A stretch of 38,839 bases of DNA. It comes from a virus. Taxonomy: Duplodnaviria > Caudoviricetes. Below, piece by piece: positions 3,228-30,392 of the stretch (positions within the stretch are counted from its first letter, which is position 1; every line of letters starts with the position of its first letter). The translations under genes were made by a program, and so were the position numbers. Where the stretch lies: positions 1-38,839 of the IMG/VR virus record IMGVR_UViG_3300034980_000491; one strand, 5' to 3'. Below the pieces are notes generated by a model that was not told the DNA's origin, ran no database searches, and saw only the letters and a list, made by a program, of their open reading frames with translations.

Positions 3228-3711
3228 CGCATCCCACCGCCAGAACCCCCAAAAACCCATTTTCAAGTGCCTGTAATCGTTGGCCTTTTCGCAACGTCTG
3301 ATAACGTGTATTATGTAAACTTCATGGCCCTCAAGTGGTAAAAAACCCAACAAAACCAATGCCTTACCTGTGGTCTATAGGGGAAAACCCGGAGGCTTAG
3401 ATTTCGAGAATTTCGTGATTGGTGGGATGGCGTCCCGCTATTTCATGGTCCCCACATCCCACCGACCGCTTGATTTTACGAGAAAGCCCCTTGCGAAGAT
3501 GAAAGACGATCTGACGTTTTCGATTGCTTGTCTTTTCTCGTCGCCCTCTTGCAAAGGTGAAAGCAACGGGCCAGCGTTGTTTGACTACGAATGGATTTCC
3601 AAGGTTCCGATCAATGCGTTTTCTTTCGAAAAAGGCAGTCGATCAAGAGGGAATCTTTTTTGTCATTTTTTCGATTAGTCATAATCTGGAGATGTGGCGG
3701 GGAGGTGAGTC

Positions 3712-3939
3712 GTGAAAGAGGGAGATTGGATTGTCGATAGGACGTGCTCCCTGAGACCGCGTGTTGGCAAGATAATCACGATGTCTCCATCCTACCTCAC
3801 GATCCATTGGTTGACTGCATCACAACATGAGTGGGTGGCTTCAATGGATTCTGTGGTTCAGGACTTACAGACGGGCCTCTGGGAACATCGACCCGCCGCA
3901 CCTTGGCCGACCCGGATTTTCAGGGATCGGCTGTATTAG
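3712..3939 (+). CDS. Hypothetical protein
   Basis: Strong RBS GGAGGTG before GTG; MKEGDWIV start suggests a small beta-barrel. Confidence 0.55.
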   Translation: MKEGDWIVDRTCSLRPRVGKIITMSPSYLTIHWLTASQHEWVASMDSVVQDLQTGLWEHRPAAPWPTRIFRDRLY

Positions 3940-4046
3940 GTTTTCAAGACGTTGGGGGTTTCCTGTGTTGTGCTGGTGGGCTTTCGAAACCGGCTGGATT
4001 TTGTATTGCTGGGTTTGATTCTGTTGTTCCTGTTGAGGTTGATGTT

Positions 4047-4421
4047 GTGAATGTTGGTGCTGTTGGTGGAGTTGGTGCAGGAGCCGGGGCAGGCGCGGGC
4101 GCAAGCGCAAGCGCGGGTGCGGGCGCAGCAAATGGCGCAGGAAGCGTCTCAGGCGCGTCCGCCGCTGTTGAACCGGGGCAACACCAGCCCGGGAAGCCTC
4201 CAGCGTCCTCTGAGGGCGGCTCTGGGGCGGAGGAAGCATCCAAGGCCGATGGTCGGGCGTGCTATCCCCCCGGATCCTCTTCGATGGACACTCAGACGTT
4301 TTTGTCGATCCACAACATGGCGATCCAAGAGAGCCAGCCTACCGAAGGCATCGACTGGAAGAAGTTGATTGAAATGATGATGGCGATTGAGTTACTCAAG
4401 GCGATGAACGAGAACGGCTAG
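4047..4421 (+). CDS. Hypothetical protein with Gly/Ala-rich N-terminus
   Basis: GAGGT at 4035-4039 precedes an in-frame GTG. C-terminus MDTQTFLSIHN...WKKLIEMMMAIELLKAM is protein-like. Confidence 0.55.
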   Translation: MNVGAVGGVGAGAGAGAGASASAGAGAANGAGSVSGASAAVEPGQHQPGKPPASSEGGSGAEEASKADGRACYPPGSSSMDTQTFLSIHNMAIQESQPTEGIDWKKLIEMMMAIELLKAMNENG

Positions 4422-4606
4422 TGTCCCCCGTCAACCCTGCTCCCCCATTCATGTTCGCAATCCGTACAGCGCATGGCATAGACCCGGATTTGGAAGTTCG
4501 CTCCCGTATCCTCGGGATCCGGCTCTACGCGGACCCATTCCGCATCACTTGAATTGCACTCGGGGCAAGGGTCGATCCATCGTTTGAAGTCGTGTGGATC
4601 TGTCAT
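4418..4606 (-). CDS. Small zinc-ribbon protein
   Basis: CPEC...CTDC pair; GGTGGA upstream of ATG 4606. Confidence 0.65.
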   Translation of the reverse strand: MTDPHDFKRWIDPCPECNSSDAEWVRVEPDPEDTGANFQIRVYAMRCTDCEHEWGSRVDGGH

Positions 4607-4614
4607 GTGTCCAC

Positions 4615-4749
4615 CTACAGCATGAACAGGAGCGTGATAATAGCGACCACGCAAACAAGGCCAGCAAGGTCTTCGAGGATATCCGTGTTTCTGTTGTCTT
4701 GGATTCTCTCTACCATTCGTCTTCGGTTCTTCGTGTTCTTGTCGTTCAT
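4615..4749 (-). CDS. Small membrane protein (44 aa, not in the ORF track)
   Basis: AAAGGAG RBS; product MNDKNTKNRRRMVERIQDNRNTDILEDLAGLVCVVAIITLLFML. Confidence 0.55.
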   Translation of the reverse strand: MNDKNTKNRRRMVERIQDNRNTDILEDLAGLVCVVAIITLLFML

Positions 4750-4809
4750 GCCTGTTCTCCTTTGTTCGTTTCCTGATTGTTTGATCGACTTCGGGACTTC
4801 CGCAAATTT

Positions 4810-5229
4810 TTATTGGTTGTCCCACAATGCCTCAAGGTCTGCCACGTCTTCGGCGTCCAACACGGGGGCCTGTTCTCGCCCCTTGACCCGTCCAAGACTC
4901 CCAAGCACCGGGGGGTCAAGCAAGATGGTGTCACCGTTGACCGTGTGAATTCGAGTGGTCAGCGTTCGTGGTGATTGCCGGTTCTTGAGCATGAACCTCG
5001 CCCGTCGGATGTGCTCAGGTAGCTCCGCACGTCGGCTCCCGATGCTTGCAATCCGCTTCAGGTCTTCTTCTTCGCACGACCCCCGTACAACGTCGTCCTG
5101 CTCGATTCCTTGGAGCATGATCTGCCCCCAGATTTCCAGCCGTGCAAGTTTGGCTTCCTGCCCTTCTCGCGTCTCACGTATCGAAGCAATCATTTGCAGG
5201 ATTCGCCCGCCCTTCTCTTTCGGTGTCAT
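4810..5229 (-). CDS. Early hypothetical protein ending in the EQAPVLDAEDVADLEALWDNQ peptide
   Basis: AAGGAGAAAGGG RBS before ATG 5229. The last 21 codons match 18043-18105. Confidence 0.75.
   Translation of the reverse strand: MTPKEKGGRILQMIASIRETREGQEAKLARLEIWGQIMLQGIEQDDVVRGSCEEEDLKRIASIGSRRAELPEHIRRARFMLKNRQSPRTLTTRIHTVNGDTILLDPPVLGSLGRVKGREQAPVLDAEDVADLEALWDNQ
4813..4875 (-). repeat. 63-bp dispersed inverted repeat, copy 1 (partner 18043-18105)
   Basis: 56/63 nt and 17/21 aa identical by manual alignment. Confidence 0.9.
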
Positions 5230-5450
5230 GCCCTTTCTCCTTTCCGCAACGCGGCCTCGACCCCAAGCACAACGGTCATTCGACCGGGTGTGCATGGACT
5301 GAATTCTGTCACCACTTCCCATCGCCCGTTGATCTTGGCTTGCGCTGCTACCAGCCTACCGAGATACAGCAACCGGATATCCTGCCTCAGAATCTCCTCG
5401 GGGTAGCTTTCCGTTCTCCGCGAGGTCACATAGTCAATTCTATTTCTCAT
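5226..5450 (-). CDS. Hypothetical protein
   Basis: Overlaps both neighbouring genes; AGGA upstream. Confidence 0.6.
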   Translation of the reverse strand: MRNRIDYVTSRRTESYPEEILRQDIRLLYLGRLVAAQAKINGRWEVVTEFSPCTPGRMTVVLGVEAALRKGERA

Positions 5451-5862
5451 CTGTCCTATCCTTTAGAGGCTCGCGCCTCCAACTGTTTAGCCCTGAACAG
5501 CACCCCGCCCCCACGGACAGGCTCTTCTTTAGCCGCTCCGCCGTCTCTGCGTCCGCGTCGAGGATTAGCCCACACAGGTGCCTCTCCCCGTTCCATCGAA
5601 GCTCCGGGCAGGGACCGCTGGTCAGTGCGCCGTCATGCGCCCTTTGCGCCTCGTGACACGGGGCCTTCCAACAGCAATAGCCAGAACCTATGCAGGGCTT
5701 CGGTTTGATGTCGTAGTCTTCGTCTTCCAAGGCTCTGTCTTTATCCAGCAATCGTAGCAATACCGTCCTCCGTTCCTTGCCTTTCGATAGGCGGACCCGC
5801 ACTCCTTGCAGTGTGTTGCACCTTTCGCTCCCCTCTGGAGTTCGGAAAGCGTTTTCTGCCAA
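5440..5862 (-). CDS. Cys-rich hypothetical protein (start uncertain, possibly TTG at 5730)
   Basis: PCIGSGYCCWKAPC...CPELRW...LCGL...GAGCCSGLNSWRR. An overlapping frame (stop 5688) carries CKEC...CYDC and may be a separate zinc-finger gene. Confidence 0.6.
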   Translation of the reverse strand: MAENAFRTPEGSERCNTLQGVRVRLSKGKERRTVLLRLLDKDRALEDEDYDIKPKPCIGSGYCCWKAPCHEAQRAHDGALTSGPCPELRWNGERHLCGLILDADAETAERLKKSLSVGAGCCSGLNSWRREPLKDRTDEK

Positions 5863-6357
5863 TCAACCAAAACAAAACTCCCGCTGGTCACTCGTGCTCT
5901 CCTCAACGACGGGGGCTTCCTCAACGCTCAGGGCCGGGGTGGATTGCTTCCGAATTGCACGACGGATGCACATCATGCCGTTTTGCTGGTTTCGGATGTT
6001 CTCCATCCACGTTGCCGCGAACGTGCGATTTGCACGGACCCGACCGGGGGAGAACTTGGAAATCTCCCCGTCCTCGAAATACACAGCAACCTGATACCCA
6101 AAGCTGTCTTGGTAGGTCACAGGAATCCACTGACCGGAATCGGTGCGATGGAAAGTCATATCCGGGTCGCAGCACCTATCCCCATTCTGGGTGTAGTAGT
6201 GAGCGACCGAGTAGACGGTCTCAGAAAGGCGGTCAACGTGAACGGCCATGAATGACCCTTTGCTGTTGTCGATCTTGTACGCCTCTCCAATCTCCAGACC
6301 CTTGGTCAGAGTGTCGAGCATTTCCTCTGCCCTTTTTGATACATGAAACCTTGTCAT
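5863..6357 (-). CDS. Conserved phage/plasmid protein, DUF6908/DUF1249-like
   Basis: FMAVHVD...YSVAHYYTQNGD..CDPDMTF...FAATWMENIRNQ; strong RBS. Confidence 0.7.
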   Translation of the reverse strand: MTRFHVSKRAEEMLDTLTKGLEIGEAYKIDNSKGSFMAVHVDRLSETVYSVAHYYTQNGDRCCDPDMTFHRTDSGQWIPVTYQDSFGYQVAVYFEDGEISKFSPGRVRANRTFAATWMENIRNQQNGMMCIRRAIRKQSTPALSVEEAPVVEESTSDQREFCFG

Positions 6358-6391
6358 TTCCCTTTCTCCTTGCCCCTGTTCAGGGGGCTGT

Positions 6392-6667
6392 TTATGAAGT
6401 AGCAATCAGGAACAAGACGATTCGGTTGATCGCCTCGTCACCGCTCTCTCGAATGTGGGACCAATCCCAACACTGATCCTCGGCCCAATCCCGCGTGACC
6501 TTTCCGAAACCATCACCAAGCAAGTACGCCTGCTCCCAACGACCGTGACGAAGACCGTTCCCGATGGAATGCTTGCCTTTGGGATGAAGGCGATCCATCA
6601 CATAGACACGAGCCTCGGAAGGGTTGGAAAAGAGATAAGCGATGATTTCAGAATTGATATTGCCCAC
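6392..6667 (-). CDS. Hypothetical protein
   Basis: Hairpin plus AAAGGAG RBS before GTG; contains WDWSHIRES. Confidence 0.7.
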   Translation of the reverse strand: MGNINSEIIAYLFSNPSEARVYVMDRLHPKGKHSIGNGLRHGRWEQAYLLGDGFGKVTRDWAEDQCWDWSHIRESGDEAINRIVLFLIATS

Positions 6668-6696
6668 GGCAATTCTCCTTTGGCCCGTAGGCCGGT

Positions 6697-6981
6697 TTAG
6701 TAACCAAGCCCCTCTGCCATCACTTCGTACTTCTCCAAAGATCCATCAAGAGAAACGTCCATGAGACGCGCCTCGAACGCAGCGTTCTCCGCCAACTCAG
6801 CTTCATAGGCCGCGAGGGAACTGGAATACTCCAAGAGCGATTCCAACTCGGCCTCGGCCTGCGCCAGAGTGATAGTGTCGGAACGCATCCAACGCGGACG
6901 GATTCCGTGGATGTCCTTGTAGACATCGGAATAGAGGGAGAGTGTGTTTTCGAGGTCGGAGAGTGTGTTTTGGTTCAGCAT
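6697..6981 (-). CDS. Phage early hypothetical protein (YSDxYKDxHGxRPR type)
   Basis: LYSDVYKDIHGIRPR motif; first gene after the promoter at 7025-7053. Confidence 0.7.
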   Translation of the reverse strand: MLNQNTLSDLENTLSLYSDVYKDIHGIRPRWMRSDTITLAQAEAELESLLEYSSSLAAYEAELAENAAFEARLMDVSLDGSLEKYEVMAEGLGY

Positions 6982-7024
6982 TTTGTTTTCCCTTTCGTTT
7001 TCGTTTTTGTTTCTTCTGACGCTG

Positions 7025-7076
7025 ACATTACGCTTATCTCGTACCCCCGTCAACCCAATAGTACGCTTTTCTCGTA
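7025..7076 (-). promoter_or_regulatory. Sigma70-like early promoter with two palindromic boxes
   Basis: TTGACG-17 bp-TAATGT. Boxes TACGC-N5-TCGTA at 7029-7043 and 7062-7076. Confidence 0.75.
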
Positions 7077-7110
7077 AGTATTTCACAAACGCCGGAAATG
7101 ATTACTTTTT

Positions 7111-7506
7111 TTATTCGCTCTGAGACCAGACTCTTTGCGCTTTTCGCATTTGTCGGGCCTTTTGTTTCTTCTCTTTCCGGGCCTTTTTCTTCTCTGCTTT
7201 GTTGGTGCCCGAAGTGGGAGTCGAACCCACACGCCCCACAGGAGCAACGGATTTTAAGTCCGTTGTGTCTACCAGTTTCACCATTCGGGCTTCGAGGTCT
7301 TGCATCCGTGTGTCGAGTTCAACAACAACGGTTTGCAGTTCTTCGAGTGTCTTGATCATCTCGTCTTCGGATTCGATGCTCCGCTCTTCAATCTTTGTCT
7401 TCTCGGAGTAGAGTTCAACTACAGATCCCGCGAGTCCAATCAGCGCGATTGCTACGCCGCTCCATGTGGCGACTCCGGTCATTGTCCGTTTCTTTGTCTC
7501 GGTCAT
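7111..7506 (-). CDS. Membrane-anchored coiled-coil protein reading through tRNA-Leu
   Basis: GAGGAG RBS, 4-nt overlap with the upstream gene, hydrophobic helix, heptad repeats and a Lys-rich tail. Confidence 0.6.
   Translation of the reverse strand: MTETKKRTMTGVATWSGVAIALIGLAGSVVELYSEKTKIEERSIESEDEMIKTLEELQTVVVELDTRMQDLEARMVKLVDTTDLKSVAPVGRVGSTPTSGTNKAEKKKARKEKKQKARQMRKAQRVWSQSE
7203..7290 (-). tRNA. tRNA-Leu(UAA), CCA encoded
   Basis: GCCCGAA/TTCGGGC acceptor stem, D arm with TGG, ACGGA-CTTAAAA-TCCGT anticodon arm, long variable arm, GGTTCGACTCC and ACCA end. Confidence 0.95.
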
Positions 7507-7676
7507 TTGCTTTCTCCTCGAACAAGTTCGATGTATTGGATTAGGTATCCAGCATATCCCTTGTGGAGTGTTATGCCGTCAAGCTCAAAGACCGGCCCCT
7601 CGCATTCTTTGTGAGCCTTCTTCAGGCGTTTCAGGAATGCCGCGTCGGTTGGAATCTGCGGTCTCTCGTCTACCAT
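7503..7676 (-). CDS. Hypothetical protein
   Basis: GGAGG RBS; LKRLKKAH...FELDG...GYAGYLIQYIE. Confidence 0.65.
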   Translation of the reverse strand: MVDERPQIPTDAAFLKRLKKAHKECEGPVFELDGITLHKGYAGYLIQYIELVRGESK

Positions 7677-8029
7677 GTCTCTTCCTCCTGTCTGTCTGCC
7701 AAGGCAATCTTGACCCGTGACATTTGCTCTTCTTTCCAAAGAACTTCCGCTTCCCTCAGAGTCAGTTCTTTTTCTCTTTTCTCGTATTGTTCTCGAATCC
7801 AGTCGTTTCGGGTCTTGCCCGTGTTGGACGTTCGGTTGTGCTCTCGGAGTTCGTGGACAAGCCGTGACACGTCGTCTCCAGCGTGGTCAAGGTAAACCCC
7901 TTGTCTGTTGATCTGGATGTCGTGTCGCTTGAGGTACTTCTTTGCGATTCCACACAGTCCGCTCTTGCCTGCTTCGAACCGTCGCTTTTGCGCGGTGATG
8001 ATCTTATCGATTTCCTTCTTGCCATCCAT
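7670..8029 (-). CDS. Hypothetical protein
   Basis: TAAGGA RBS before ATG 8029; overlaps the next gene. Confidence 0.65.
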   Translation of the reverse strand: MDGKKEIDKIITAQKRRFEAGKSGLCGIAKKYLKRHDIQINRQGVYLDHAGDDVSRLVHELREHNRTSNTGKTRNDWIREQYEKREKELTLREAEVLWKEEQMSRVKIALADRQEEETW

Positions 8030-8042
8030 TGCGTTCCTTAAA

Positions 8043-8099
8043 TAGCCGGTGTGCCCCACGCTGGTACATCCAGCGTCTCAAAGCAGGGCACACCGGCTA
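8043..8099 (-). other. Stable stem-loop directly 3' of tRNA-Lys
   Basis: Perfect 14-bp stem TAGCCGGTGTGCCC/GGGCACACCGGCTA enclosing a 7-bp stem ACGCTGG/CCAGCGT. Confidence 0.6.
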
Positions 8100-8107
8100 A
8101 AGCAAAG

Positions 8108-8180
8108 TGAGCCGGGTGGGGTTCGAACCCACGACCCAAGGATTAAAAGTCCTTTGCTCTGCCACCTGAGCTACCGGCCC
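8108..8180 (-). tRNA. tRNA-Lys(UUU), CCA not encoded
   Basis: GGGCCGG/CCGGCTC acceptor stem, TAGCTCAG D arm, AAGGA-CTTTTAA-TCCTT anticodon arm, GGTTCGAACCC. Confidence 0.93.
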
Positions 8181-8185
8181 CTGTT

Positions 8186-8488
8186 CTAGTTGATGCTGAT
8201 TTTGTTGAGGTCCAGCCCTTCCTGTATTCCCCGGTGTACCAGATCGAGAAGTTCCGAGTCTGGGGCAACTCGCACTCCCGCCTTTCCCAAGGCCCATTTG
8301 AGTCCTATGCGCTCTTGCACGTCGTTCCAGAGGTTGTACTCCGCGCAGGTATCGATCAACCACTTGCGGGTCAGCTTGGACTTGTTCCATCGCTTCTGCG
8401 CGTGCAGGGCTTCTTTCATCTGGCGCGGGAGCATCTTGGCCCGTTCCATGATGTCGAGTTCTTTCAAGATATCTTCTTTCATGTACAT
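8186..8488 (-). CDS. Hypothetical protein
   Basis: Hairpin plus AAGGAGAAAGGG RBS before ATG 8488. Confidence 0.7.
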   Translation of the reverse strand: MYMKEDILKELDIMERAKMLPRQMKEALHAQKRWNKSKLTRKWLIDTCAEYNLWNDVQERIGLKWALGKAGVRVAPDSELLDLVHRGIQEGLDLNKISIN

Positions 8489-8519
8489 TCCCTTTCTCCT
8501 TTGGCCCGTAGGCCGGTGA

Positions 8520-8738
8520 TTAAAGTGGAAGAACCACGTCATGAGGGGAAACATGGGAGCCACCGAAGCGGGCGACGAGATCGTCGGCAAGGTCGGAGGG
8601 GAGAAAGTGAGCGGTCACAACGGGGCGATCATTGTCGTCGGCCCCGATGGTGAGACCGGGGTCAGCGAAGCCGTTGTCCTCGGTAAGCACGTCCTCGATG
8701 TCAGCGAGGCGGTTTAGGTTGTCGATGGTAAGATTCAT
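8520..8738 (-). CDS. Small acidic hypothetical protein
   Basis: Hairpin plus AAGGAGAAAGGG RBS. Confidence 0.7.
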   Translation of the reverse strand: MNLTIDNLNRLADIEDVLTEDNGFADPGLTIGADDNDRPVVTAHFLPSDLADDLVARFGGSHVSPHDVVLPL

Positions 8739-8770
8739 TTCCCTTTCTCCTTGCCCTGTTCAGGGGCGGT

Positions 8771-9184
8771 TTAGTTTGCGGCTCGGTTTCCCCACAGTCC
8801 GCCTTCATATTCTTTGAGCAGGCGCAAGTTGCGGCTCTGCTCGTCAGTCATGTAGGATTCTGTCCGGTTGTTTTTGAGGATTTTTTTAAGCACCTTCCAC
8901 GTTTCTTCTCCAGCTTTCTTCGCCTCTTCTGTCAAAAAATCTTTTTCAAAACGCCAGACGCGGGGGGCATCTGCCCATGTATTTATGATTGTTTGCAGCA
9001 CCAACAGCTTGACCTCAAAGGTCGTCTCGTCATCGCCCGTGGAGTTCTCGACCTCGAAGGCGTTGTTTTCCACTACGATTTTCTCGATGGCCAAAGAGTG
9101 ACGGTTGAACAAGGCATCTATTTTATTTAACGTCTCTGCCCCGCTCTCTGTTTCTTTTGCCAGTGTTCCTACGCTTGTTTCCAT
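8771..9184 (-). CDS. Hypothetical protein
   Basis: First gene after the promoter at 9223-9251; AAGGAGAAAGGG RBS. Confidence 0.72.
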   Translation of the reverse strand: METSVGTLAKETESGAETLNKIDALFNRHSLAIEKIVVENNAFEVENSTGDDETTFEVKLLVLQTIINTWADAPRVWRFEKDFLTEEAKKAGEETWKVLKKILKNNRTESYMTDEQSRNLRLLKEYEGGLWGNRAAN

Positions 9185-9222
9185 TTCCCTTTCTCCTTCG
9201 TTGTTCGTTCAACCTGAGATGG

Positions 9223-9272
9223 AACTTACACTCTACTCGAAACCCCGTCAAGCTAATTACGAAAAAAGTGTA
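9223..9272 (-). promoter_or_regulatory. Sigma70-like early promoter with two palindromic boxes
   Basis: TTGACG-17 bp-TAAGTT. Boxes TACAC-N5-TCGAA (9227-9241) and TACGA-N5-GTGTA (9258-9272). Confidence 0.72.
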
Positions 9273-9296
9273 AAATAATATCCAGTCCCCTTTTTT

Positions 9297-9722
9297 TCAT
9301 CCCGCGCAAACGGGGCCAATTCCTCGCTCGATGCTTTCGGGATCGGTGAGTTTCCGTCCGCACTTCCCGCAGCGCCCTTCGTGCCAGAACGAGAATGCCG
9401 GTGGAAACTCGTCATCGGAGTTGAGCACCGCGAGGGTAAACCGGAGCGCCTTGAAGCTCGGAGCGGTCGCGGAAATCCGCCCGTCTCTTTTCGGGACGAG
9501 TCTCGCGCCGTCGTCAAAGATGGTTCCGAGGTAGGAGTAATCCCCTTCGTTGTCCGACCCGGTGAGCACCTTCACGAAGAAGGGCTTGTCGCCCCCGCCC
9601 GCGACCTTGTAGGTGAACCGGGTTCCGGTGTTCTCCGAGACGACCGTGAAGGTCGCGGAGCCTTTGGCCGTCTTCGGGCTAAGTACAAACTCTCTGGCTT
9701 TCGTTGCGTTCAAAGTTTTCAT
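9297..9722 (-). CDS. DUF6011-type zinc-finger protein
   Basis: ATFTVVSENTGTRFTYKV...VLTGSDNEGDYSYLG...HEGRCGKCGRKLTDPESIERGIGPVC. Confidence 0.82.
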   Translation of the reverse strand: MKTLNATKAREFVLSPKTAKGSATFTVVSENTGTRFTYKVAGGGDKPFFVKVLTGSDNEGDYSYLGTIFDDGARLVPKRDGRISATAPSFKALRFTLAVLNSDDEFPPAFSFWHEGRCGKCGRKLTDPESIERGIGPVCAG

Positions 9723-9747
9723 TTCCCTTTCTCCTTCTCACCCTTTT

Positions 9748-10248
9748 CTAGGAACTAGATTCGGTGCGATTTTCAAAAATATGATCTCCGCCATGGTCTC
9801 GCTCTGCGACCAGTTCTTTCCAAATGGCGCGAGCCTCTTCGACGGGAAGGGTCTTTCTCGACTCCTTTTCCCACTCCGGGTATCCAGAGTAAGTGGTGTA
9901 CATATCGACAGTCTTTCCGCCAGCATTCGAAACGAACGCCATCCCGGTCATGTCCGCTTCGTCTTCACAGAAGTTGTAGTGAAGATAGTGCGTTGTTTCT
10001 TTGTTCATTTCGGCCTCTTCGTTGCGTGCGATTTCGGCCTTGGTGCTCATGATGAGGTTTTGCCATCCGTGCTTCGCCAGCTTCACAGCGAGCAGGATGC
10101 AGGACTTTGCCGGAACAAATCCGTATTCCTCACGGAAGCACTCGGAAGCGTGTTCACACATTTCAAAATGCGACAGCGGGTGAATCTCGTATGCCCGCAA
10201 AACCATCTCGGCAACCACTTGAATTTCTGATTTGTTCAAATAACGCAT
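9748..10248 (-). CDS. Hypothetical protein
   Basis: AAGGAGAAAGGG RBS before ATG 10248; first gene after the promoter at 10283-10312. Confidence 0.7.
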   Translation of the reverse strand: MRYLNKSEIQVVAEMVLRAYEIHPLSHFEMCEHASECFREEYGFVPAKSCILLAVKLAKHGWQNLIMSTKAEIARNEEAEMNKETTHYLHYNFCEDEADMTGMAFVSNAGGKTVDMYTTYSGYPEWEKESRKTLPVEEARAIWKELVAERDHGGDHIFENRTESSS

Positions 10249-10282
10249 TCCCTTTCTCCTTTGTTCGTTCAACCTGAAAATG

Positions 10283-10335
10283 ATACTACGAGATAATCGT
10301 AATAATAGTCAATCTAATTTTTCACTTTTTTTGTA
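10283..10335 (-). promoter_or_regulatory. Sigma70-like early promoter with palindromic box
   Basis: TTGACT-18 bp-TAGTAT. Perfect TACGA-N5-TCGTA at 10287-10301 and a degenerate copy at 10321-10335. Shares the leader TCAGGTTGAACGAACAA with the 9223 promoter. Confidence 0.7.
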
Positions 10336-10596: not shown

Positions 10597-12317
10597 CAGA
10601 AAAACAAACCGAGGCAGTCGCAGAACTGCTATCCACGTCCGAAGGGCGAAGGGCGCTGTCCATTCAGAGTCCGGTGTTTTTTGACACCTACTATTGCGGC
10701 ATGAGATTTGCGAAGCATCGAGAGCTTTGGTTGGAGACATTCGAATCAACAACACTTGATGCCGCAGAAAAAAACAGCAAGAACAAGTTGTTGGTCCTTG
10801 CCCCCCGTGACCACGGGAAGACCGAGGCGGGGATCTCCGTTGCCCTTCGCACCATCTGCTTGAATCGAAACGTGAGGATCTTGTGGATCTGCGAGTCGAG
10901 CACTCAGGCCGAAAAGAGAATGCGACGTGTCAAAAGTTTGCTGGAAAGCGACTTGATCACTGGCGACTGGTGCAGCGCGGAGGAAGAGGGCTACGGTCCA
11001 TTTCGAAAGACAGACAACGACCGTTGGATGTCCACACAGGTATATGTCCACAGAAGCCTTCAAAGCGTTGACCCTACACTCGAAGCGGTTGGGGCAAACT
11101 CCAGCGTGACCGGTGGTCACTTCGACCTAATCATCGCAGATGACCTCGAAGACGACCGAACGGTGTACAGCGCGACACAACGCAAAAAGACCCGTGACTG
11201 GTTTCGAGGAACGATCTCTCCGATGTTGTCCGTTGGCGGAACGATGGTGGTCATCGGTACGAGAAAACATCATGATGATTTATATTCACACATAATTGGA
11301 GATCCCACTTTTCGAATCATGCAGGACAAGGCCATTTCGAAATGGCCAGACAACTACAGCTTTCTCATGGAGAAGGACCAGTACAACCGGGAAGTGATCA
11401 CCGGGGTCAAAATCGAAGGGGAGGCGGAAGTTCTTTGGAAAGAAGAGCGTTCCATTGAATACTTGCTACAGGAAAGGCAGTCCGTTGGAAGCCGTTTGTT
11501 TGCCCGGGAATTTCAAAACGAAGTTCAAGACGATAGCGCGGCGGCATTCCGAATGGAGTGGCTGGAAACAGCAAAGTCGAAAGGAAAGAACTTTTGTCTT
11601 TATCAAATCCCTGACATTGACGATTTGGATATTGTTCAGGGGTGGGACTTGGCCTTGGTCACAGATTCGGAGGCCGCAGAAAACCGCGACACGGACTTTA
11701 CTGTTGGCGTGACGTGGGGGAGGGATCCAGATGGCAACCGGTATTTACTAGGATTATGTCGAAGGCGCGGCCTTTCTCAGGCGCAGTTGCAGGCGGTTGT
11801 GGTTCAAGAATATCTCCGCTTCAACAGTCGCCCGCGAATCGTCGCGGTAGAAAAAAACAACTTTGGTGAATTGCACTTCATGGGCCTTCAGCGAAGCACC
11901 GACCTTCCGCTAAAACCGCATTTGACAACGGGGAAGAATAAAGCAGATCCTTGGGACGGCGTTCCTTCCCTTTCCGTTCTTTTTGAAAACGGAAAAGTGA
12001 TATTGCCCACAGGCGATTTGGAAAGCAGGGATGCCATCAAGCCATTGGTGGATGAATTGTGGGGACTTGGAAGAGAGCGCCACGACGATACGGTTATGGC
12101 GCTTTGGATTGCGGAGACGGTTTTGAGAAAATCGGCATTCGTATATCGAATGAGCTTTTCCGAAGATTTGGAATTGGAAGGCGAGGCTGACGAAAGGATG
12201 TTGGGGGAAAGCGGCGGGGAGCAAAGAGTGAAGAAAGACCCCGTTATTCAAAAAATCGAAGACAATCATCTTGAGGGTTTATGGTCAAACCTTCCGGTTG
12301 ATTTGGATATTTCATAG
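10593..12317 (+). CDS. terL: Terminase large subunit
   Basis: Walker A APRDHGKT, Walker B FDLIIADD, VIGTR coupling motif, nuclease acidic motifs QGWDLA, VAVEKN and HDDTVMALWIA. Confidence 0.95.
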   Translation: MTEKQTEAVAELLSTSEGRRALSIQSPVFFDTYYCGMRFAKHRELWLETFESTTLDAAEKNSKNKLLVLAPRDHGKTEAGISVALRTICLNRNVRILWICESSTQAEKRMRRVKSLLESDLITGDWCSAEEEGYGPFRKTDNDRWMSTQVYVHRSLQSVDPTLEAVGANSSVTGGHFDLIIADDLEDDRTVYSATQRKKTRDWFRGTISPMLSVGGTMVVIGTRKHHDDLYSHIIGDPTFRIMQDKAISKWPDNYSFLMEKDQYNREVITGVKIEGEAEVLWKEERSIEYLLQERQSVGSRLFAREFQNEVQDDSAAAFRMEWLETAKSKGKNFCLYQIPDIDDLDIVQGWDLALVTDSEAAENRDTDFTVGVTWGRDPDGNRYLLGLCRRRGLSQAQLQAVVVQEYLRFNSRPRIVAVEKNNFGELHFMGLQRSTDLPLKPHLTTGKNKADPWDGVPSLSVLFENGKVILPTGDLESRDAIKPLVDELWGLGRERHDDTVMALWIAETVLRKSAFVYRMSFSEDLELEGEADERMLGESGGEQRVKKDPVIQKIEDNHLEGLWSNLPVDLDIS

Positions 12318-14062: not shown

Positions 14063-14461
14063 ATGCCAAAACCCCATGACCTAATTCCTCCCGCCACAGT
14101 TCGCGTTGTTGCTCAACGCGGGCTGAACCTTTACGAAAAAAGCGGTGGAGCGGGTTGCGAAGAACAGCAACTCGCCAAAGCCATTGTTTCCGAAGAGGCC
14201 CTTACACCCCAACAAGTTGATAGTCTTTCTGAGTTCTTCGATAGAGGAGCTTCGTGGAGAAAAAACATCCGACAACGCGGGTCTTCCGACTATTGCAAAT
14301 GGTTGATGTTGGGGGGGATGCTCGGCATGGGGTGGGTTCAAAAACTCAAGCGCGGCGAAAGCGCAAAGAAAGGGCGTCTTCAGAAAGTTGTGCGTTCTCA
14401 CAAAAAGGATGTCAGAAAGCGGTTTTCTGATATTGTTTCTCGTGTTTCTTCGCGGAGTTGA
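14063..14461 (+). CDS. Head-associated hypothetical protein
   Basis: PPATVRVVAQRGL...FFDR...WLMLGG..G..WV pattern, as I recall from phage head-region proteins; ends with FSDIVS. Confidence 0.65.
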   Translation: MPKPHDLIPPATVRVVAQRGLNLYEKSGGAGCEEQQLAKAIVSEEALTPQQVDSLSEFFDRGASWRKNIRQRGSSDYCKWLMLGGMLGMGWVQKLKRGESAKKGRLQKVVRSHKKDVRKRFSDIVSRVSSRS

Positions 14462-14463
14462 AA

Positions 14464-17400
14464 ATGCCCCAAGGTGTGGACGAGAAGGTTTGGAACAAAG
14501 CCAAGTCACTTGTTGAGCAGCAATATGGTTCTGCGAAAGACAAGTATGCGCTCGTCATGCACCTCTACCAAAAAATGATGGGCGCAAAGAAAGCCCATTC
14601 CTTTTCCGATATCATTTCCCTAGTCAAAGGCGGCGGTCCCTACATCGGCCCTCGCGGGGGCAAGTGGGCAGACGCAAAACATACGATCCCTTGGAAGGCA
14701 GGCGGGGCAAAGAAGAGCATTTTCTCAAGGCTGATGGATGCCATCAAGAAGAAGAAGAGGTTCTTTTCAGAGACAGCCTTGAGCGCCGTCAACAAGATGG
14801 TGGACTTGGACAAACTCAAAGAACTTCGAGATGCCTTGAAGTCCTCCATGAAGGAGGAGCCGAAAGCGAAGAAAGAGCCGGAAGAGAAGAAAGAGAAGAA
14901 AGAGGCAAAGAAAAAGAAGCCCGCTGCCCCCAAGAAGAAAGGCGGGGTCTCTGCGAAGCAATTGCTTGCAGCCATCGAGAAGCGCATTGCCAAGCTGGAA
15001 GGGAAGAAGCCAGAGAAGAAAAAACGCCCATCCTTTGAACAGCAAGTAAAGCAAATCTCTTCTTATGCGGAATTCAAAAGCCTGTATCAAAAAACGCTTC
15101 TTACCATGTTTTCGTATACACCGGGTGAGGCGGGGTCTGCGGTTTTTGCGGAAAAGATGGGCCACCTAGAAGATGCCTTTCCTGATTTCGCAAAGAAGTA
15201 CGACGAAGAGCAAGAGAAGAAGGGCGCTCTCAAGCCCGACGTTAGTGATGCCGGTGGAAAACAAGAGACAATCCGGCGTCCTGAGTTTTTGAGTTGGTTC
15301 GGGGATTGGACCAAGGGCAAAGGCTCCAAGGTTGTCAACGAGGCAGGAGAGCCGGAAGAACAATTCGGACACAAGCCCGTGAAGATGTTTCATGGGACTG
15401 CCGTGGGGGGGTTCACGTCTTTCGATCCAGACAAAGACAAAGGCGGGAACATTTTCGGTAAAGGGTTTTATTTTACAGCGGATCGGGAGATCGCAGAATC
15501 CTACACGAAGAAAGACGAAGAAAGCGCGGCAAGTCTTGCGACCCATTTGGAAGACGCACGAGGCAAGAAGGTTGAGAGCCTGAGCGCGGAGCAAGTTCAA
15601 AAAGTTTTCGACGCGAACTTCCGTCAGATGAAGGTTCGAGGCAAAAACGGATACGAACTCATCTCCCCTACAAATTTAAGCGTAGACCTGAATGCCTATG
15701 GGACACCGGGGTATTCTGGCGGGGCACCCCGCCTTATGTCCCATGAAGCAATAAAAGGGCAAATACTTGTCGCAATGGCTGATTCTGTGGACGCAAGCGG
15801 CACCGTGAAAATGGATCGGTTTTTTGAGGCATTGGAAACCCAACCTCACCTCCCCCCAAAAGGCGAACGAACAGGAATCGAGGATACAGCGGGCGAGTCT
15901 ACTCCAGACGTAAATCGCGCTCGTGCCTTGCGTACTTTTGGAGAGCCGCTGAGTTTGGGATATGGAGGCGGTCCCCCTGCGGAAGTGTTCGAGGTATATT
16001 TGTCGGTCAAGAACCCGATTGACATGGATAAAGAAGCCTCTCGGGAGGCGTTTAGCTCTCTCGCTCGATTTGAATTGGATAAACTTCTTGCGCGTTCAAA
16101 GTCTCGGTTTTCCAAACTAGAAGCAGACATAAAAACACAGAAGAAAGATTTAGAGGAAATCAAAAACGCCCCGATCAAGGATCAAACGTCGCAGTACCGT
16201 AGTTATCCGCACCCGGCCACGCAAGAGATAATTAGAGAAGAGGCAAAGCCGGGTCATCGCTGGGGAAGTCAGGGTGGTGGTCGCTTGGAGCAGATACCGC
16301 AAAGTGAAGTTGCTGCTTTCAATGAGAAAAAACACCTCCGAAGTGTGGAATATCATGCGGAAAGAGTAGAGCAGTCCATTGAATACTTGGGGTACGAAAA
16401 AGCGAGACTTGAGAAATATAAAAAAGAACTGGCTTCTGACAACCCGACTTATGAAGCGTACTTCAAGACCTTTGTTGTAGGTTACGATGAAGATGTCACA
16501 GCCATCGGCGGCGTGAAGGGTGAAGGCTCTTACGGGACTTCCTATGATGATCTGCTTGCTCTAAAAAAACACTTTCGAAAAAGCAAATATGACGAGGATC
16601 TAACTCATTGGAATGGGCAAGAAGTCAAAGCCGGTGACCCCGTGCATGAGATGTTCCATTTAAGCGATGCCGATACGTTGACGTGGGGAGATATTCATTA
16701 CCTCATAACCGACCGGCATCAATCCAGCAGCACCCAAAGTTCGTTTACCGAGTGGGCCAAGCGCGAGGGTCACGACGGAATCCATCACACGGGCGGTTGG
16801 AACATCGGGTCGAAAGAGCATTCCGTCTGGATTGCATTTGAGTCAGAGCAGATTAAATCGGTTGATTCGGAGAACTTCGATCCCAAGTCGGTTGATATTT
16901 ACAAAAGCAGAAACCCCAAGATGGCATCTACCTTTTCCAATATCCTTTCCCTAGTCAAAGGCGGTGGTCCATACATCGGCCCCCGTGGGGGCAAGTGGGC
17001 TGACGCAAAACATACGATCCCTTGGAAGCCTGAAAAGAAGAAGAGGAAAAAACGGTCCAAGTTTCCGTTCAGAGACGCTCAGACCTCCCTGTTCCCCCCC
17101 AGTCTGGCGGAGGGCAAGGTTTACGAGAACATTGACCTTACAGTCCGTAGAACGGAAGTGTGGAAGGATCCTCATCGACCAAGGGATCCAAACATAGCTG
17201 ACCAAAAAGCTATTGCACGGCGTGATTACAACCCGCTCCACCCATCTTCTGGCGACGACACTGCTCTGGAGGATGTGCAGGATATTACCAAGCGCGTGTT
17301 TGGCCGAGCTTTAACGGTGCAAGAGGTTTGTGCCCTCGCAGGACTCCCATCCAATGCCACAGCGAAAGTGCGCGTAGACTATATTGAACGGGAGGGGTCA

Positions 17401-18192
17401 AAACCGGAATTTCGGATACGGGTCTCGGGCCGGTTAAGCGTGGAAGGGGAAAGGTATGGCGGTAAAAGCGTCGGGCAGTGGCAGCGCACTATAACGAAAG
17501 ATAAAATTGAAAACGATTTGATGACTGTGGAAAAGGCGTTCCAAAAACGCGGAATCGGGGCGCAGAGCTTGTACGATGAGGCTTCGGCGGCTAACGCGCT
17601 GGGGATACCTAAGATCGAATGCTATGCCGCTGGACCAAGCCGTGAGTATCAAGGTTATTATGTCTGGCCCCTTTTGGGCTACTCAAGCGGCGAAATATCA
17701 TCAGAGGTAGCCAGTAGTTATGTGCGAAACAAACCTAGCGCCGACCGCAGCGACAGCAAATCCTATTTACAGGAAATGCAAGATGACCTTCAGGCACTGA
17801 TGTCTGAACATGGCGCGACCGCGACACCGCCGTACAAGGTATCGGACTTGATGACTTTTAAGGCGGGCCGCAAGTGGTGGAAAGAAAATGGAATAGGGGG
17901 CACCATGACCTTCGACACAACGACCGATTCCCCTTCCATGCAAGTAATCGAGGGCTTTGTCAGCAAAAGGAAACACAAAAATCGAATTAAGAAGTTCCAA
18001 TTAAGCAAGGCTCATAATCAAAGCAACGCGCCAGTCGGCGTTGAGCAGGCCCCAATGTTGGACGCCGAAGACATGGCAGTCCTTGAGGCATTGTGGGATA
18101 AGCAAGGCGCGACGATGAGCAAAGCCCGCTCCTTTTCCAATATCATTTCCTTGCTCAAATCAAATATTGACACCGGTTCAAATAGATCGTAA
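14464..18192 (+). CDS. Polyvalent probable internal virion protein: ChaB-like N-terminus, ADP-ribosyltransferase-like and GNAT-like domains
   Basis: ART-PolyVal-like motifs FLSWFGDW..SKVVNEAGEP..MFHGT..FGKGFYFT..VYLSVKNP..GHDGI..AFESEQIKS. GNAT motif A FQKRGIGA followed by GYYVWPLLGY. Two GPYIGPRGGKWAD tags. Confidence 0.8.
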   Translation: MPQGVDEKVWNKAKSLVEQQYGSAKDKYALVMHLYQKMMGAKKAHSFSDIISLVKGGGPYIGPRGGKWADAKHTIPWKAGGAKKSIFSRLMDAIKKKKRFFSETALSAVNKMVDLDKLKELRDALKSSMKEEPKAKKEPEEKKEKKEAKKKKPAAPKKKGGVSAKQLLAAIEKRIAKLEGKKPEKKKRPSFEQQVKQISSYAEFKSLYQKTLLTMFSYTPGEAGSAVFAEKMGHLEDAFPDFAKKYDEEQEKKGALKPDVSDAGGKQETIRRPEFLSWFGDWTKGKGSKVVNEAGEPEEQFGHKPVKMFHGTAVGGFTSFDPDKDKGGNIFGKGFYFTADREIAESYTKKDEESAASLATHLEDARGKKVESLSAEQVQKVFDANFRQMKVRGKNGYELISPTNLSVDLNAYGTPGYSGGAPRLMSHEAIKGQILVAMADSVDASGTVKMDRFFEALETQPHLPPKGERTGIEDTAGESTPDVNRARALRTFGEPLSLGYGGGPPAEVFEVYLSVKNPIDMDKEASREAFSSLARFELDKLLARSKSRFSKLEADIKTQKKDLEEIKNAPIKDQTSQYRSYPHPATQEIIREEAKPGHRWGSQGGGRLEQIPQSEVAAFNEKKHLRSVEYHAERVEQSIEYLGYEKARLEKYKKELASDNPTYEAYFKTFVVGYDEDVTAIGGVKGEGSYGTSYDDLLALKKHFRKSKYDEDLTHWNGQEVKAGDPVHEMFHLSDADTLTWGDIHYLITDRHQSSSTQSSFTEWAKREGHDGIHHTGGWNIGSKEHSVWIAFESEQIKSVDSENFDPKSVDIYKSRNPKMASTFSNILSLVKGGGPYIGPRGGKWADAKHTIPWKPEKKKRKKRSKFPFRDAQTSLFPPSLAEGKVYENIDLTVRRTEVWKDPHRPRDPNIADQKAIARRDYNPLHPSSGDDTALEDVQDITKRVFGRALTVQEVCALAGLPSNATAKVRVDYIEREGSKPEFRIRVSGRLSVEGERYGGKSVGQWQRTITKDKIENDLMTVEKAFQKRGIGAQSLYDEASAANALGIPKIECYAAGPSREYQGYYVWPLLGYSSGEISSEVASSYVRNKPSADRSDSKSYLQEMQDDLQALMSEHGATATPPYKVSDLMTFKAGRKWWKENGIGGTMTFDTTTDSPSMQVIEGFVSKRKHKNRIKKFQLSKAHNQSNAPVGVEQAPMLDAEDMAVLEALWDKQGATMSKARSFSNIISLLKSNIDTGSNRS
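14600..15011 (+). repeat. Tag plus K/E-rich module duplicated at about 18980-19382; tag part also at 16931-17028 and partly at 18121-18159
   Basis: 66 nt identical (14946-15011 = 19317-19382); similarity is lower over the rest. Confidence 0.9.
18043..18105 (+). repeat. 63-bp dispersed inverted repeat, copy 2 (partner 4813-4875)
   Basis: Encodes EQAPMLDAEDMAVLEALWDKQ. Confidence 0.9.
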
Positions 18193-18228
18193 CGTCCGAA
18201 ATGGTGACGAAAAACAGGAGCGTGTGAG

Positions 18229-21200
18229 ATGCCACAAGTTGGAGACCGTAAATTCCCGTACACAAAGGCCGGTATCAAGGCAGCGCAAGCGTATGCCAAG
18301 GTATCCGGGTTGGAAGTGAAATACAGCGAGAAGGACAAATCCCTTCTTATGAAGATGGGCATGGGAAAAGAGTACGGCTACAAGGGTGGCATCTTCACCG
18401 ACATCTTGAAGGGTAGTGGGAAGGGCGGACACAAGTACCTTTCCAAAAAGCCGGATGGAAAAGGCGGCTGGAACTATTCGTATAATGATCCAAAGAGTGG
18501 CACCGGGAAGGCCACTCCTGCTCTTGCTTTTGGCCATGAAGAAAAGCCCATGCGCCGTGGGGGGTTCAAGGTTTCTTCGAAAGTTCTTCGTATGTGGAAA
18601 GATCACGAAGAGTTGGGAAACAATCCCGCTGCTCATGTTTTCAAAGAGGAAAGAGCGCGTTTTGAAGCGACCCCCCGCGAGGACTTGCCCAAGTTGTTTG
18701 GTATCATTTCTGGGGGCGCGTCTGCCATTCCAGATGCACAAGATGTTCTGGCCAGAAATCCAAAGGCCGCATTTCAGGGATGGCTTCAAAATTTGGCAAA
18801 GGTGGACCCTCGCGCAGCGAACGTGGTTCGAGCGAAGCCTCAATATGCTGCCATGTACTTCCATGTTCACATGGAAAGGTTGAGTGGAAAGGATATGGCA
18901 GACGGCGTGTTTCAGCGTCTCTTTGAAACAGAAAGCGGCCACCCTGCTCAAATGAAAACAAAAAAGGCCATGTCTCCTTTCACCAACCTCATCAAGGGTG
19001 GCGGTCCATACATTGGCCCACGCGGAGGCCGGTGGGCTGACGCAAAGCACACCATTCCTTGGAAAGAGGAAGGGCCAAAGAAGAGCATTTTCGGAAGGCT
19101 GATGGCTGCGATCAAGAAGAAGAAGAAGTTCTTTTCGAAGTCTGCCCTGACCGCCGTCAACAAGATGGTGGACTTGGACAAACTCAAAGAGCTTCGAGAT
19201 TCCCTGAAAGCCTCCATGAAGTCGGCGGGGCCGAAAGAGCCGAAAGAGAAGAAAGAGCCGGAAGAGAAGAAAGAGGCGAAGAAAAGGAAACCCTCTGCCC
19301 CCAAGAAGAAGGGCGAGGTCTCTGCGAAGCAATTGCTTGCAGCCATCGAGAAGCGCATTGCCAAGCTGGAAGGGAAGAAGCCGATAGGCGTTCCCAAGGC
19401 TGCGAAGAGCGAGGCGACAAAGAGGCGAGAAAAACACCATAAGGCGGAGATCAGCAAGTTGCGGGCGAAGAAGGGTGATGCCGCCTTGATTGCCGGTCAT
19501 CATGCTGGGGATGGAGACGCGACCAAGAAACTACAAGCCAGAGCACAGGAATTGTTGCCCGGAGTACGCATTCAAGAGTCTCTTGACGTTGTTGCTACGG
19601 CTGCGGAGCATGGCGGAAAACTTCCAAAGGAATACGTTGAGCAAATGATTCGGGAAAACCGGGTCGCAGGGAAGAAGCCAACGTCGAAAGACGCCCGTGA
19701 GAAGCTGAAGGACATGGGGAAGAAGCGCCCCGGCCAGCCCGACATTGTAGCAGCGAAGAAGGTGGACAAGCCGAAGGGATTTCTTACCGGCCAATCGTGG
19801 TTAAGTGTCATGGAGACCTACGACAAGAACGAGGACAAGAACTACCACAGCGAGAACGCCGCTATGTTGGCCGAGGCTTTCGGCTTGCCGAAGGCATCTA
19901 TTGACGAGCTAAAGGCCCTGTCCGCTAAACGCGACAAGACAATGGACGATATGCAACGTCAAGGGGAGCTTGTACAAGGGCTATGGGGCATTGCCCAAGA
20001 GAAGGCCGATAAGGAACAGAGGTCGTGGGACGCCATTGCCGATGCGTTTCCGTCAGGTGAGAAAGACGCGCCGAAGGCGGAGAAACTTACGTTCAAAATT
20101 ACTGACCGTTTCAACACCGCAGGCGTAGACCAACATCAAGAGTCAGCCCGCATTGAACTTGAACGTCAAGGCTTTAAGGTTCGTCCTTACGTAGAGCGAG
20201 ATGCTTCCGGTATTCAGCGAAGGTATCTTGAGGTGGAAGGCGATCCAGAAAAGATTAGGAGCGCATCCAAAAAAATCATTGGCGGTGAGCGCGAAGAAGT
20301 GAAACCGGAAAAGAAGGCCGATAAGGAACAGAAGCCAACGTCGGAAGCGGGGGGGTCTGGTGCTGTAAACGCAAAGTATTTGGACAGCCTGCCTGCTGAG
20401 AAGAAGAGCAGGATCTTGACGCATATCGCGGATCACTATGGCGTTTCCGTTTCTGAGATCGAAAGTGAGCTTACACACGCGGAGGCAGAAGACCTGTTTG
20501 AGTACGCCGCAACTGACCGCGCTATGGCGATGGAGATTTACAACGACTTCAAGCGCAGGGGTCTTTTAGAAGAAGATAGGAGCGTTCACGTTTCTAAGCC
20601 GAAGGAAGACGCTCCCAAGGCAGAGCTTGCGACGGGAGAAGCAAACTTTTTGCTCAGTAGGATAGCGGGACAGGGCGGATTTTCTGTAAAGGCCAATCCT
20701 GCGAAGCCCGGTAATAATATCCAGAAACTTTTGGACGCTGGTTTAATTCACGAGGTTGGCGGAAAATGGCAACCCAAGGACCAAGCAAAGTCCCACAAGG
20801 AACGTCTCGCGGATATCCACAACGAAGGCTATCTCGCCTCCCCCAAACTAGGAACGGGCAACGCAGAGGGCCACGCAGAGCGTCATGCAGCCCACGAGAA
20901 GCAGCACAAGGAGATGGTGGAAGCTGGACACCTTGAGCATCTTGGCCACGGGGTTTATGCGGACAAGGCTCCGCCCAAAGCGACGGGTGGAAAGAAAGGC
21001 AAAGTCACTATCAAGCGAGGCGGCAGTGAAGCCGTAGAGGTTCCCGCTACCATCTACGGGAAAGGCAATTGGGCCATCACGAAAGATCCAAAGGAAGGCA
21101 AGTCCCGCGTGACAAACGTACAAGCTGGATTGGGATTCGGTGGCGAGATGTCAGGACCGCAAGCATCCTATGTCATGGCCCATCTCATGGAGATGGAAGG

Positions 21201-26101: not shown

Positions 26102-26376
26102 AGATCCACATCTCAGAGTCAAGACCGGGAGAGTTTCACGAATCTCGATCCGTTCTCGAAGCAAGGGCAAAGGCCGCAATACAAGCGGCCCTCGATACCT
26201 TGTCGGACTCCGAGCCTCCATTGAGCAAAGGGCAGAACACGCAAACGGCTCGTGGCGGCGAAGTCGATGCGATTGAAGAACTCACTAAACACATGGTTGG
26301 GTTGTACGAGAAACGAGCACAGCAGATGCTTGCTGACCTAGAGCGTGTTCTGGAGAGTTCTGTTGAAAGCAGATGA
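26098..26376 (+). CDS. Head-associated hypothetical protein
   Basis: GTGA overlap with the upstream gene; LSKG motif. Confidence 0.65.
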   Translation: MKIHISESRPGEFHESRSVLEARAKAAIQAALDTLSDSEPPLSKGQNTQTARGGEVDAIEELTKHMVGLYEKRAQQMLADLERVLESSVESR

Positions 26377-30363: not shown

Positions 30364-30392
30364 AAGTTACGATAATATCGTAACCCTGTCAA
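30364..30392 (-). promoter_or_regulatory. Antisense sigma70-like promoter with perfect palindromic box
   Basis: TTGACA-17 bp-TAACTT on the minus strand; GTTACGATA-A-TATCGTAAC palindrome at 30366-30384. Confidence 0.6.

Follow-up and report, generated by a model that had tools for sequence, protein, structure and literature searches.

Two copies of a short peptide in a marine phage, and a candidate immunity-like inhibitor of a GNAT-fold family

The locus and its two peptide copies

The DNA analysed here (hereafter the window) is the whole of an IMG/VR record of 38,839 bases that is about 52% complete. It derives from a marine phage, and its sequence occurs in marine metagenomes; no RNA dataset is among the listed holders of the sequence. 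The window carries a primase and VRR-NUC gene, and small minus-strand genes from about 4400 to 10300. Downstream of this cluster lie genes for the terminase, two large unannotated proteins, the portal, a protease, the capsid and sheath-like proteins. Neither the GNAT region described below nor P0016 has a match in 50,697 GenBank phage records, and five capsid relatives (four of them less than 90% complete) carry no GNAT, no match to the polyprotein and no convincing peptide.

A gene of 139 amino acids occupies positions 4810-5229 on the minus strand. Its N-terminal 118 residues have no relatives and its C-terminal 21 residues are a copy of the peptide that concerns us here. A ribosome-binding leader, AGGAGAAAGG, lies at 5232-5241 on the same strand and is common to six other minus-strand genes; it occurs seven times on the minus strand of the window and never on the plus strand. 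Among the six frames across 4810-5229, this is the only one with a positive codon score (0.108) and no stop, and the scores of the neighbouring genes are 0.118-0.252 for four and -0.05 for the fifth. Judged by its leader and codon score, the ORF looks like a real gene. No relatives of the protein were found in viral contigs, the 5.8-billion set (76-244 aa), Pfam, PHROGs or the Atlas. The gene sits 1.8 kb behind the nearest upstream sigma70-like promoter match (TTGACG-17-TAATGT at 7025-7053, minus strand; a match to the pattern alone) and outside the late operon. Two related matches of the minus-strand cluster begin at 9251 and 10312; a stricter scan retained one, that at 10312, against a chance expectation of 3.8 sites. 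From its position and these weak promoter matches, the gene is likely to be expressed early.

The distal peptide copy at 4813-4875 (minus strand; EQAPVLDAEDVADLEALWDNQ) matches the native, fused copy at 18043-18105 (plus strand; EQAPMLDAEDMAVLEALWDKQ) at 56 of 63 nucleotides and 17 of 21 residues, as an earlier note on this DNA had reported, and the pair forms the longest inverted repeat of the window (self-blastn E 2e-16). Identity drops to background on either side of the 63 nucleotides, and the last codon of the minus-strand copy precedes TAA; the similarity is indeed in frame, confined to the module and ended by the stop codon. Three differences are synonymous and four are non-synonymous (pN 0.078 versus pS 0.25, which on seven changes in all proves nothing). 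The duplicated 63 nucleotides coincide with the bounds of a module that is conserved across the family described below. On the profile of that family the distal copy scores 27.0 bits and the native copy 26.8, and no other match in the window reaches 6. The distal copy keeps the E-D, L and W of the consensus, and has D at a position where 46, 23 and 11 of 92 family members have I, A and L, respectively.

An assembly artefact was ruled out by Logan contigs across each copy. Contigs from run X1, possibly the source sample, span 3500-7699 and 16803-18999. Elsewhere, contigs cover 4103-5266 in X2 and 4632-4889 in X3, so that assemblies from three studies, X1 included, carry the distal copy. Among the pieces listed for X2-X4 none runs across the plus-strand copy, and no listed piece runs across both copies.

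The native copy belongs to a protein of 1244 amino acids (14458-18192, plus strand) encoded between the terminase and the portal, which combines an ART-PolyVal domain, a GNAT-fold domain and the peptide. The best stretch of the ART-PolyVal match lies at 15373-15528 (PF18760, E 4e-14, above the cut-off). The GNAT-fold domain at 17254-17985, recognised from its relatives and its predicted fold, belongs to a large unnamed family that counts 1,141 relatives at the level of 50%-identity representatives. NCBIfam and PHROG hold no family for it, and a PDB sequence search gave no significant match for the domain or the peptide and no similar complex. PF00583 is matched by 8 of 44 members of the GNAT family, with a best E of 7e-4. 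The AlphaFold2 model of the domain with its tail, built from 44 sequences, has a pLDDT of 83.5; in the fused model the tail helix reaches 94 and the linker before it stays below 50. The top matches from Foldseek and VIA are nearly all acetyltransferases, and they are weak (best E 1e-3; Z 7.9, rmsd 5.7, 150 aligned). TacT and AtaT are among the fold matches at Z 6.4-6.8; the better ones are uncharacterised phage proteins, the top one of which carries a head morphogenesis domain. A Q-K-R-G-I-G loop at 17542-17559 lies within the interface predicted below, and we take it to be the acetyl-CoA-binding motif A of GNATs, (Q/R)xxGx(G/A); the two glycines of the motif are kept in 84 and 88 of 92 rows of the family alignment. 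According to these models the region 17254-17985 has a GNAT fold with motif A, and its transferase activity is putative. By its sequence, with PF18760 beside a GNAT domain and a place near the head genes, the carrier is a polyvalent protein, and this gene context makes it likely that the protein is packaged and delivered with the DNA. A MuF domain is absent from 14458-18192 by Pfam and PHROGs, and a minor-head-like gene lies apart at 26345-27418.

Several other features of the window deserve mention. The minus-strand cluster includes tRNA-Leu(TAA) at 7203-7290 and tRNA-Lys(TTT) at 8107-8180, and a 40-nucleotide hairpin-plus-leader element precedes two of its genes (6354-6394 and 8735-8773). 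An inverted repeat of 30 nucleotides (29 of 30 identical) joins 7726-7755, in this cluster, with 11419-11448, in the interior of the terminase gene. A TTGACA-17-TAACGT sequence stands at 18167-18195 on the plus strand, directly 3' of the native peptide and before the next gene, and a relative of the promoter matches in the minus-strand cluster, at 30364-30392 (minus strand), points antisense into the end of the capsid gene. The next gene encodes a protein of 1346 amino acids (18229-22269). The C-terminal part of this protein has its hit in phrog_947 (E 1e-11), a family of DNA polymerase processivity factors, and is possibly a packaged domain of the sliding-clamp kind. The two large proteins appear to exchange modules, since they have about 390 nucleotides in common at 86% (14619-15011 and 18987-19382).

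The peptide as a module of the GNAT family

Many of the best 150 of the 1,141 GNAT relatives carry an acidic helix 20-50 residues past the domain, and the peptide family has the consensus LTxEDExILDxxWD. The seed set for the peptide profile comprised 36 seeds taken by a strict pattern from 208 domains, and at least 227 further loci came from three scans, with at most 80 each of 118, 84 and 382 confirmed stretches. The first profile sorted 249 distinct domains into 47 with a fused peptide (the window included), 46 with a peptide in another ORF within 450 nucleotides, 130 without a peptide, 15 that are truncated and 11 with an unmatched C-terminal end. Leaving out these 11, the window and 19 domains with less than 450 nucleotides of flank gives a set of 218. 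Within 450 nucleotides downstream, 102 of these 218 domains have a peptide, whereas the rate in control windows is 1 of 1500 (at least 12 bits, leave-one-out). It is fused in 52 cases, forms a separate ORF in 41 and overlaps the GNAT frame in 9. The 46 separate or overlapping ORFs that have a start have a median length of 61 amino acids, and many of them begin a few bases from the GNAT stop. After clustering at 60% identity, 84 of 171 clusters have the peptide (42 fused, 35 separate, 7 overprinted) and 87 have none. It is also found upstream of the GNAT, as a gene of its own or as an N-terminal fusion.

In eight overprinted loci the peptide is an ORF of 29-56 amino acids in the +1 frame, while the GNAT gene continues for 318-1001 codons; gene callers would tend to miss this form because it lies inside long genes. 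The ATG of the overprinted ORFs (L004:621-701, L007, L010, L033, L055, L065, L158 and L167) comes from the last helix of the GNAT, and the main frame over the peptide encodes a G-R-x-D-L-G-Q-D-L-G-like stretch that is present in several database proteins.

The association also holds in the reverse direction. DNA patterns built from the peptide alone retrieved 26 loci from IMG/VR, 12 already known and 14 new. A GNAT lies directly upstream in all seven new loci that score at least 30 bits (six of them distinct), and in none of the seven that score 17 bits or less. A profile search of small proteins yielded 63 candidates, 33 of which are free peptide proteins of 37-76 amino acids; none of these 33 is named or has a Pfam domain, and Pfam has no family for the peptide. 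The sequence flanking the peptide in free ORFs is unconserved. By these sequence comparisons the peptide is coupled to the GNAT family, whether as a tail fused to the domain, as a small ORF of its own or as an ORF overprinted in +1. The peptide being a family-wide module, a private duplication was ruled out as the reading of the repeat. Because the native position is the usual one in the GNAT family, we infer that the native copy is ancestral and the distal one derived.

The remaining 116 of the 218 GNAT domains have no adjoining peptide, and 16 of them have one elsewhere in the locus. There are 66 terminal domains whose locus lacks the peptide altogether; a coupled ORF of at most 100 amino acids follows 39 of them (a count made without a control), and such ORFs may be other types of immunity gene. 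Small ORFs behind peptide-less GNATs include E-L-P-(I/M)-E-E-F-like ones (L042, L079, L183 and L215) and a family of about 60 amino acids in planctomycete-type loci (L032, L110, L113 and L124). A further locus, L027:5534-11512, is an array in which a HipA/PI3K-like kinase gene stands with an ORF of 97 amino acids, a free ORF for the peptide and a gene whose protein has three GNAT domains, none of them with a fused peptide. A FastTree tree of the GNAT domains is weak, with stars on 27 of its 168 branches; mapping the fused and free forms onto it takes 16 changes, of which starred branches force 4, and since the tree is poorly supported we claim no order of these events.

Copies far from their GNAT are rare. 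A distal copy on the opposite strand occurs in 1 of 190 other loci, L088, where it forms a 40-aa ORF that has a leader and lies about 4 kb from the GNAT of that locus. A peptide match is present in 35 of 48 whole viral records; one match is distal and weak (G016:C1:526113, E 7e-4), and none of those examined is a clear early-gene graft. A set of 42 more records gave 32 matches, including two copies on short contigs without a GNAT. The first of these (L324:1289-1765, minus strand) is a stand-alone peptide gene on a 3.6-kb contig between chalcone-isomerase-like and RDD genes, from a genome (G060) that has a fused GNAT-peptide gene elsewhere; it is possibly a capture of the inhibitor by a host. 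The second (L317:627-1244, minus strand) is a peptide ORF close to that of L144, behind a different enzyme-like ORF that has no Pfam hit and that, by its motifs, presumably resembles the small alarmone synthetases; the arrangement of its sequence resembles that of an orphan immunity gene. Both orphan copies fit an immunity role. The graft in the window has no parallel in the 190 loci or in the 48 and 42 records.

This rarity leaves room for a neutral origin of the second copy: the peptide would be an inhibitor of the family, and its second copy a recent graft without function on a dispensable gene. A DNA identity of 89% suggests a young copy, the 139-aa gene has no relatives, and the genome has other short duplications such as the 30-nucleotide repeat at 7726/11419. 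However, what was copied is exactly the conserved module, and it forms the in-frame end of a gene that has a strong leader; the copy scores as high as the native one, and orphan copies are known elsewhere. We regard a neutral graft as rather unlikely.

The predicted complex and candidate processing

The GNAT domain (alignment of 92 rows) was modelled together with the C-terminal 32 residues encoded by the 139-aa gene (alignment of 76 rows). The pair reached an ipSAE of 0.88, and the best of three controls 0.00; the mark applied to this score is reached by 116 of 157 solved pairs versus 2 of 215 mismatched pairs. The runs agree in at least 85% of contacts, with a partner pLDDT of at least 72. 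Because the alignments hold 75 other copies of the peptide, the complex is a result for the family more than for the copy of the window. In the model the helix residues L25, L28 and W29 lie against L140/L141, M200, R206, V231 and F235, an extended arm (A14-L17) packs on V137/W138, and residues 87-92, 97-103 (motif A) and 123-127 complete the interface. Conservation is 0.58 at the interface versus 0.30 in the rest of the GNAT, a comparison that is partly circular because the loci were chosen on a GYxxW motif; interface residues are equally conserved in peptide-less and peptide-bearing domains. By textbook GNAT anatomy this region is presumably the acyl-CoA cleft, and binding of the peptide there would therefore inhibit the enzyme. 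The peptide is thus predicted to bind across the likely acetyl-CoA cleft, which the model supports without proving it, and we consider it probable that it binds and inhibits the GNATs of this family.

The pLDDT of the GNAT rises from 71-78 to 87-88 when the peptide is present, which is likewise compatible with a stabilising or activating partner, be it a chaperone or a separable piece of the fold; the second copy would then aid refolding or adapt the 118-aa part to the enzyme. The helix packs at high confidence in the models, and the rise is not matched with unrelated partners. Against this, the peptide is predicted to sit over the motif A loop, about half of the GNAT domains do without the peptide, the flanks of the free ORFs are unconserved, and a coupled small ORF following an enzyme is how immunity genes are arranged in PMC5576092. 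A stabilising partner is accordingly an improbable explanation, and inhibition remains the preferred one.

Two candidate prohead-protease sites border the native peptide, L-S-K/A at 18001-18012, between the GNAT and the peptide, and M-S-K/A at 18115-18126, after it (plus strand; the slash marks the putative cut). The pattern [LVIMF]xK[SAG] is frequent in the head maturation protease itself (27408-28142, plus strand, phrog_1028; 5 versus 1.2 expected) and in the probable scaffold, so named by position (28213-28854, plus strand; 8 versus 0.86), is at chance in 19 other proteins (14 versus 14.5) and is not enriched in the polyprotein (9 versus 7.4). In the family, K[SA] occurs in 31 of 46 fused linkers versus 24.7 expected, a weak enrichment. 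An in-frame ATG is present in 16 of these 46 linkers; the linker of the window has no in-frame start codon and so gives no sign of a nested free copy. In the passages cited, the prohead proteases of T4 (PMC9026906) and SPN3US (PMC10052503) cut behind short motifs, and most of the resulting pieces exit the head; by analogy, L-S-K/A and M-S-K/A could be cut during head maturation.

A repeated module, FSxIISL(V/L)K-GGGPYIGPRGGKWAD, opens the GNAT unit at 16918-17028 (plus strand). Further copies lie at 14587-14697 and 18955-19065 and partial ones at 18121-18159 and 22472-22542, so that the module spans three head-region genes, the polyprotein gene and the next two. It is a candidate capsid- or head-targeting and cleavage signal. 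At corresponding places in relatives there is a repeated motif of the type P-R-x(2-5)-G-x-(F/W).

The earlier note had also considered the peptide as a docking motif shared by two proteins for one host target. A short amphipathic helix at the ends of two unrelated proteins would suit docking on such a target or on the prohead. The idea finds no support, because the motif is often a tiny stand-alone or overprinted ORF: at 29-60 amino acids these ORFs have no further part to dock. The peptide moreover accompanies the GNAT and not other head proteins, is predicted to bind the GNAT, and differs from the motif that this phage does repeat on its head-associated proteins. We consider docking very improbable.

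Inhibition suggests how the enzyme might be made and delivered. The late-made polyprotein would be silenced by its own fused peptide, whose helix (L, L, W) is predicted to lie in a conserved groove with its N-terminal arm over motif A. The prohead protease would cut L-S-K/A and M-S-K/A, the piece of about 38 amino acids would leave the head, and the free GNAT enzyme would then be ejected with the DNA. A 63-nucleotide copy of the module, joined in frame to the end of a different gene, would supply a separately made inhibitor of the phage's own injected enzyme and of that of superinfecting kin. The earlier note's proposal of an antidote to the injected GNAT is strengthened in that the peptide goes with the GNAT family as a conserved partner and is predicted to bind the GNAT; early timing and injection are still what we infer. 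We lean slightly towards a distal copy that is a working early antidote, supplying the inhibitor in trans. The full chain, including arming by the protease and an early-gene antidote against the own and the kin's injected enzyme, is offered tentatively, and jointly with it the view that an inhibitor of 20 residues is reused across hundreds of phages in fused, separate and +1 overprinted forms and as orphans, one among cellular-type genes.

The second copy could instead be a late inhibitor that mops up enzyme freed outside the prohead or made without its tail. A free co-translated peptide is the family's other common form, and because the nearest GNATs on the weak tree include overprinted ones, the lineage of the window may have lost a free copy. 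Yet the 139-aa gene sits in the minus-strand cluster of small genes behind the sigma70-like matches, off the late operon, and 42 of the 171 clusters manage with a fused copy. We give a late role little chance, and retain the early antidote as the preferred reading of the second copy.

Comparison with known systems

How phages make packaged enzymes safely and shut them down after delivery is a largely open question. The unnamed family of 1,141 clusters now has a candidate inhibitor of 20 residues, which makes cloning, structure determination and a hunt for the substrate practical. The locus also illustrates how an immunity-like gene may shift among fusion, fission, overprinting and distant grafting. 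To our knowledge, GNATs of polyvalent proteins are known from prediction only. In full-text searches of the main text of openly accessible papers, by terms other than the motif itself, no description of the peptide came up. We favour the view that the peptide is an inhibitor of an acetyltransferase carried in the virion, immunity-like and, within these searches, undescribed.

In the text cited from Iyer et al. 2017 (PMC5512222), injection of polyvalent proteins is predicted, and the first of its GNAT families has ART-PolyVal beside the GNAT, as does the carrier in the window. Its GNAT section names no inhibitor or partner peptide; the likeness to the first of its two GNAT families is one of domain arrangement. 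T4 Alt is a packaged and ejected modifying enzyme that is trimmed at both ends by the prohead protease, its peptides mostly exiting the head (PMC9026906), and phiKMV Rac, as cited in PMC7824862, is a phage GNAT that acts on the host RNA polymerase. Unlike the system proposed here, the Alt propeptides are given no inhibitory role in the passages cited from PMC9026906, and those of PMC9026906 and PMC7824862 mention a second copy acting in trans for neither enzyme.

Short disordered antitoxin segments that bind a GNAT and hinder its use of acetyl-CoA and substrate, as in AtaRT, TacAT and KacAT, are a further parallel; in AtaRT the disordered tail of AtaR inhibits AtaT (passages cited from PMC7758455). 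The pair described here differs from type II GNAT-RHH systems in that the partner is downstream or fused and not upstream, the context is the virion, and the GNAT is larger, with a C-terminal extension. Pfam gave no hit to an RHH/DUF1778 antitoxin on neighbouring genes, the 139-aa gene or 75 peptides.

The MuF polymorphic toxins of phages likewise place an enzyme domain on a head-module protein with a small ORF behind it, which follows 89.4% of 191 muf toxin genes, and delivery at infection is proposed for them in the main text of Jamet et al. 2017 (PMC5576092), which mentions neither 'GNAT' nor 'acetyl'. The carrier in the window differs in having no MuF domain, and its partner is fused rather than encoded directly downstream, although a separate downstream ORF is found in 41 of 218 relatives. 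Unlike the MuF immunity ORFs, the partner is a motif of about 20 residues, which occurs in addition as a fusion, as an overprinted ORF and as a copy in a distant gene. The peptide-GNAT pair would work like a MuF toxin with its immunity protein and like a GNAT with its antitoxin tail, and is a member of neither group, while its carrier is a polyvalent protein.
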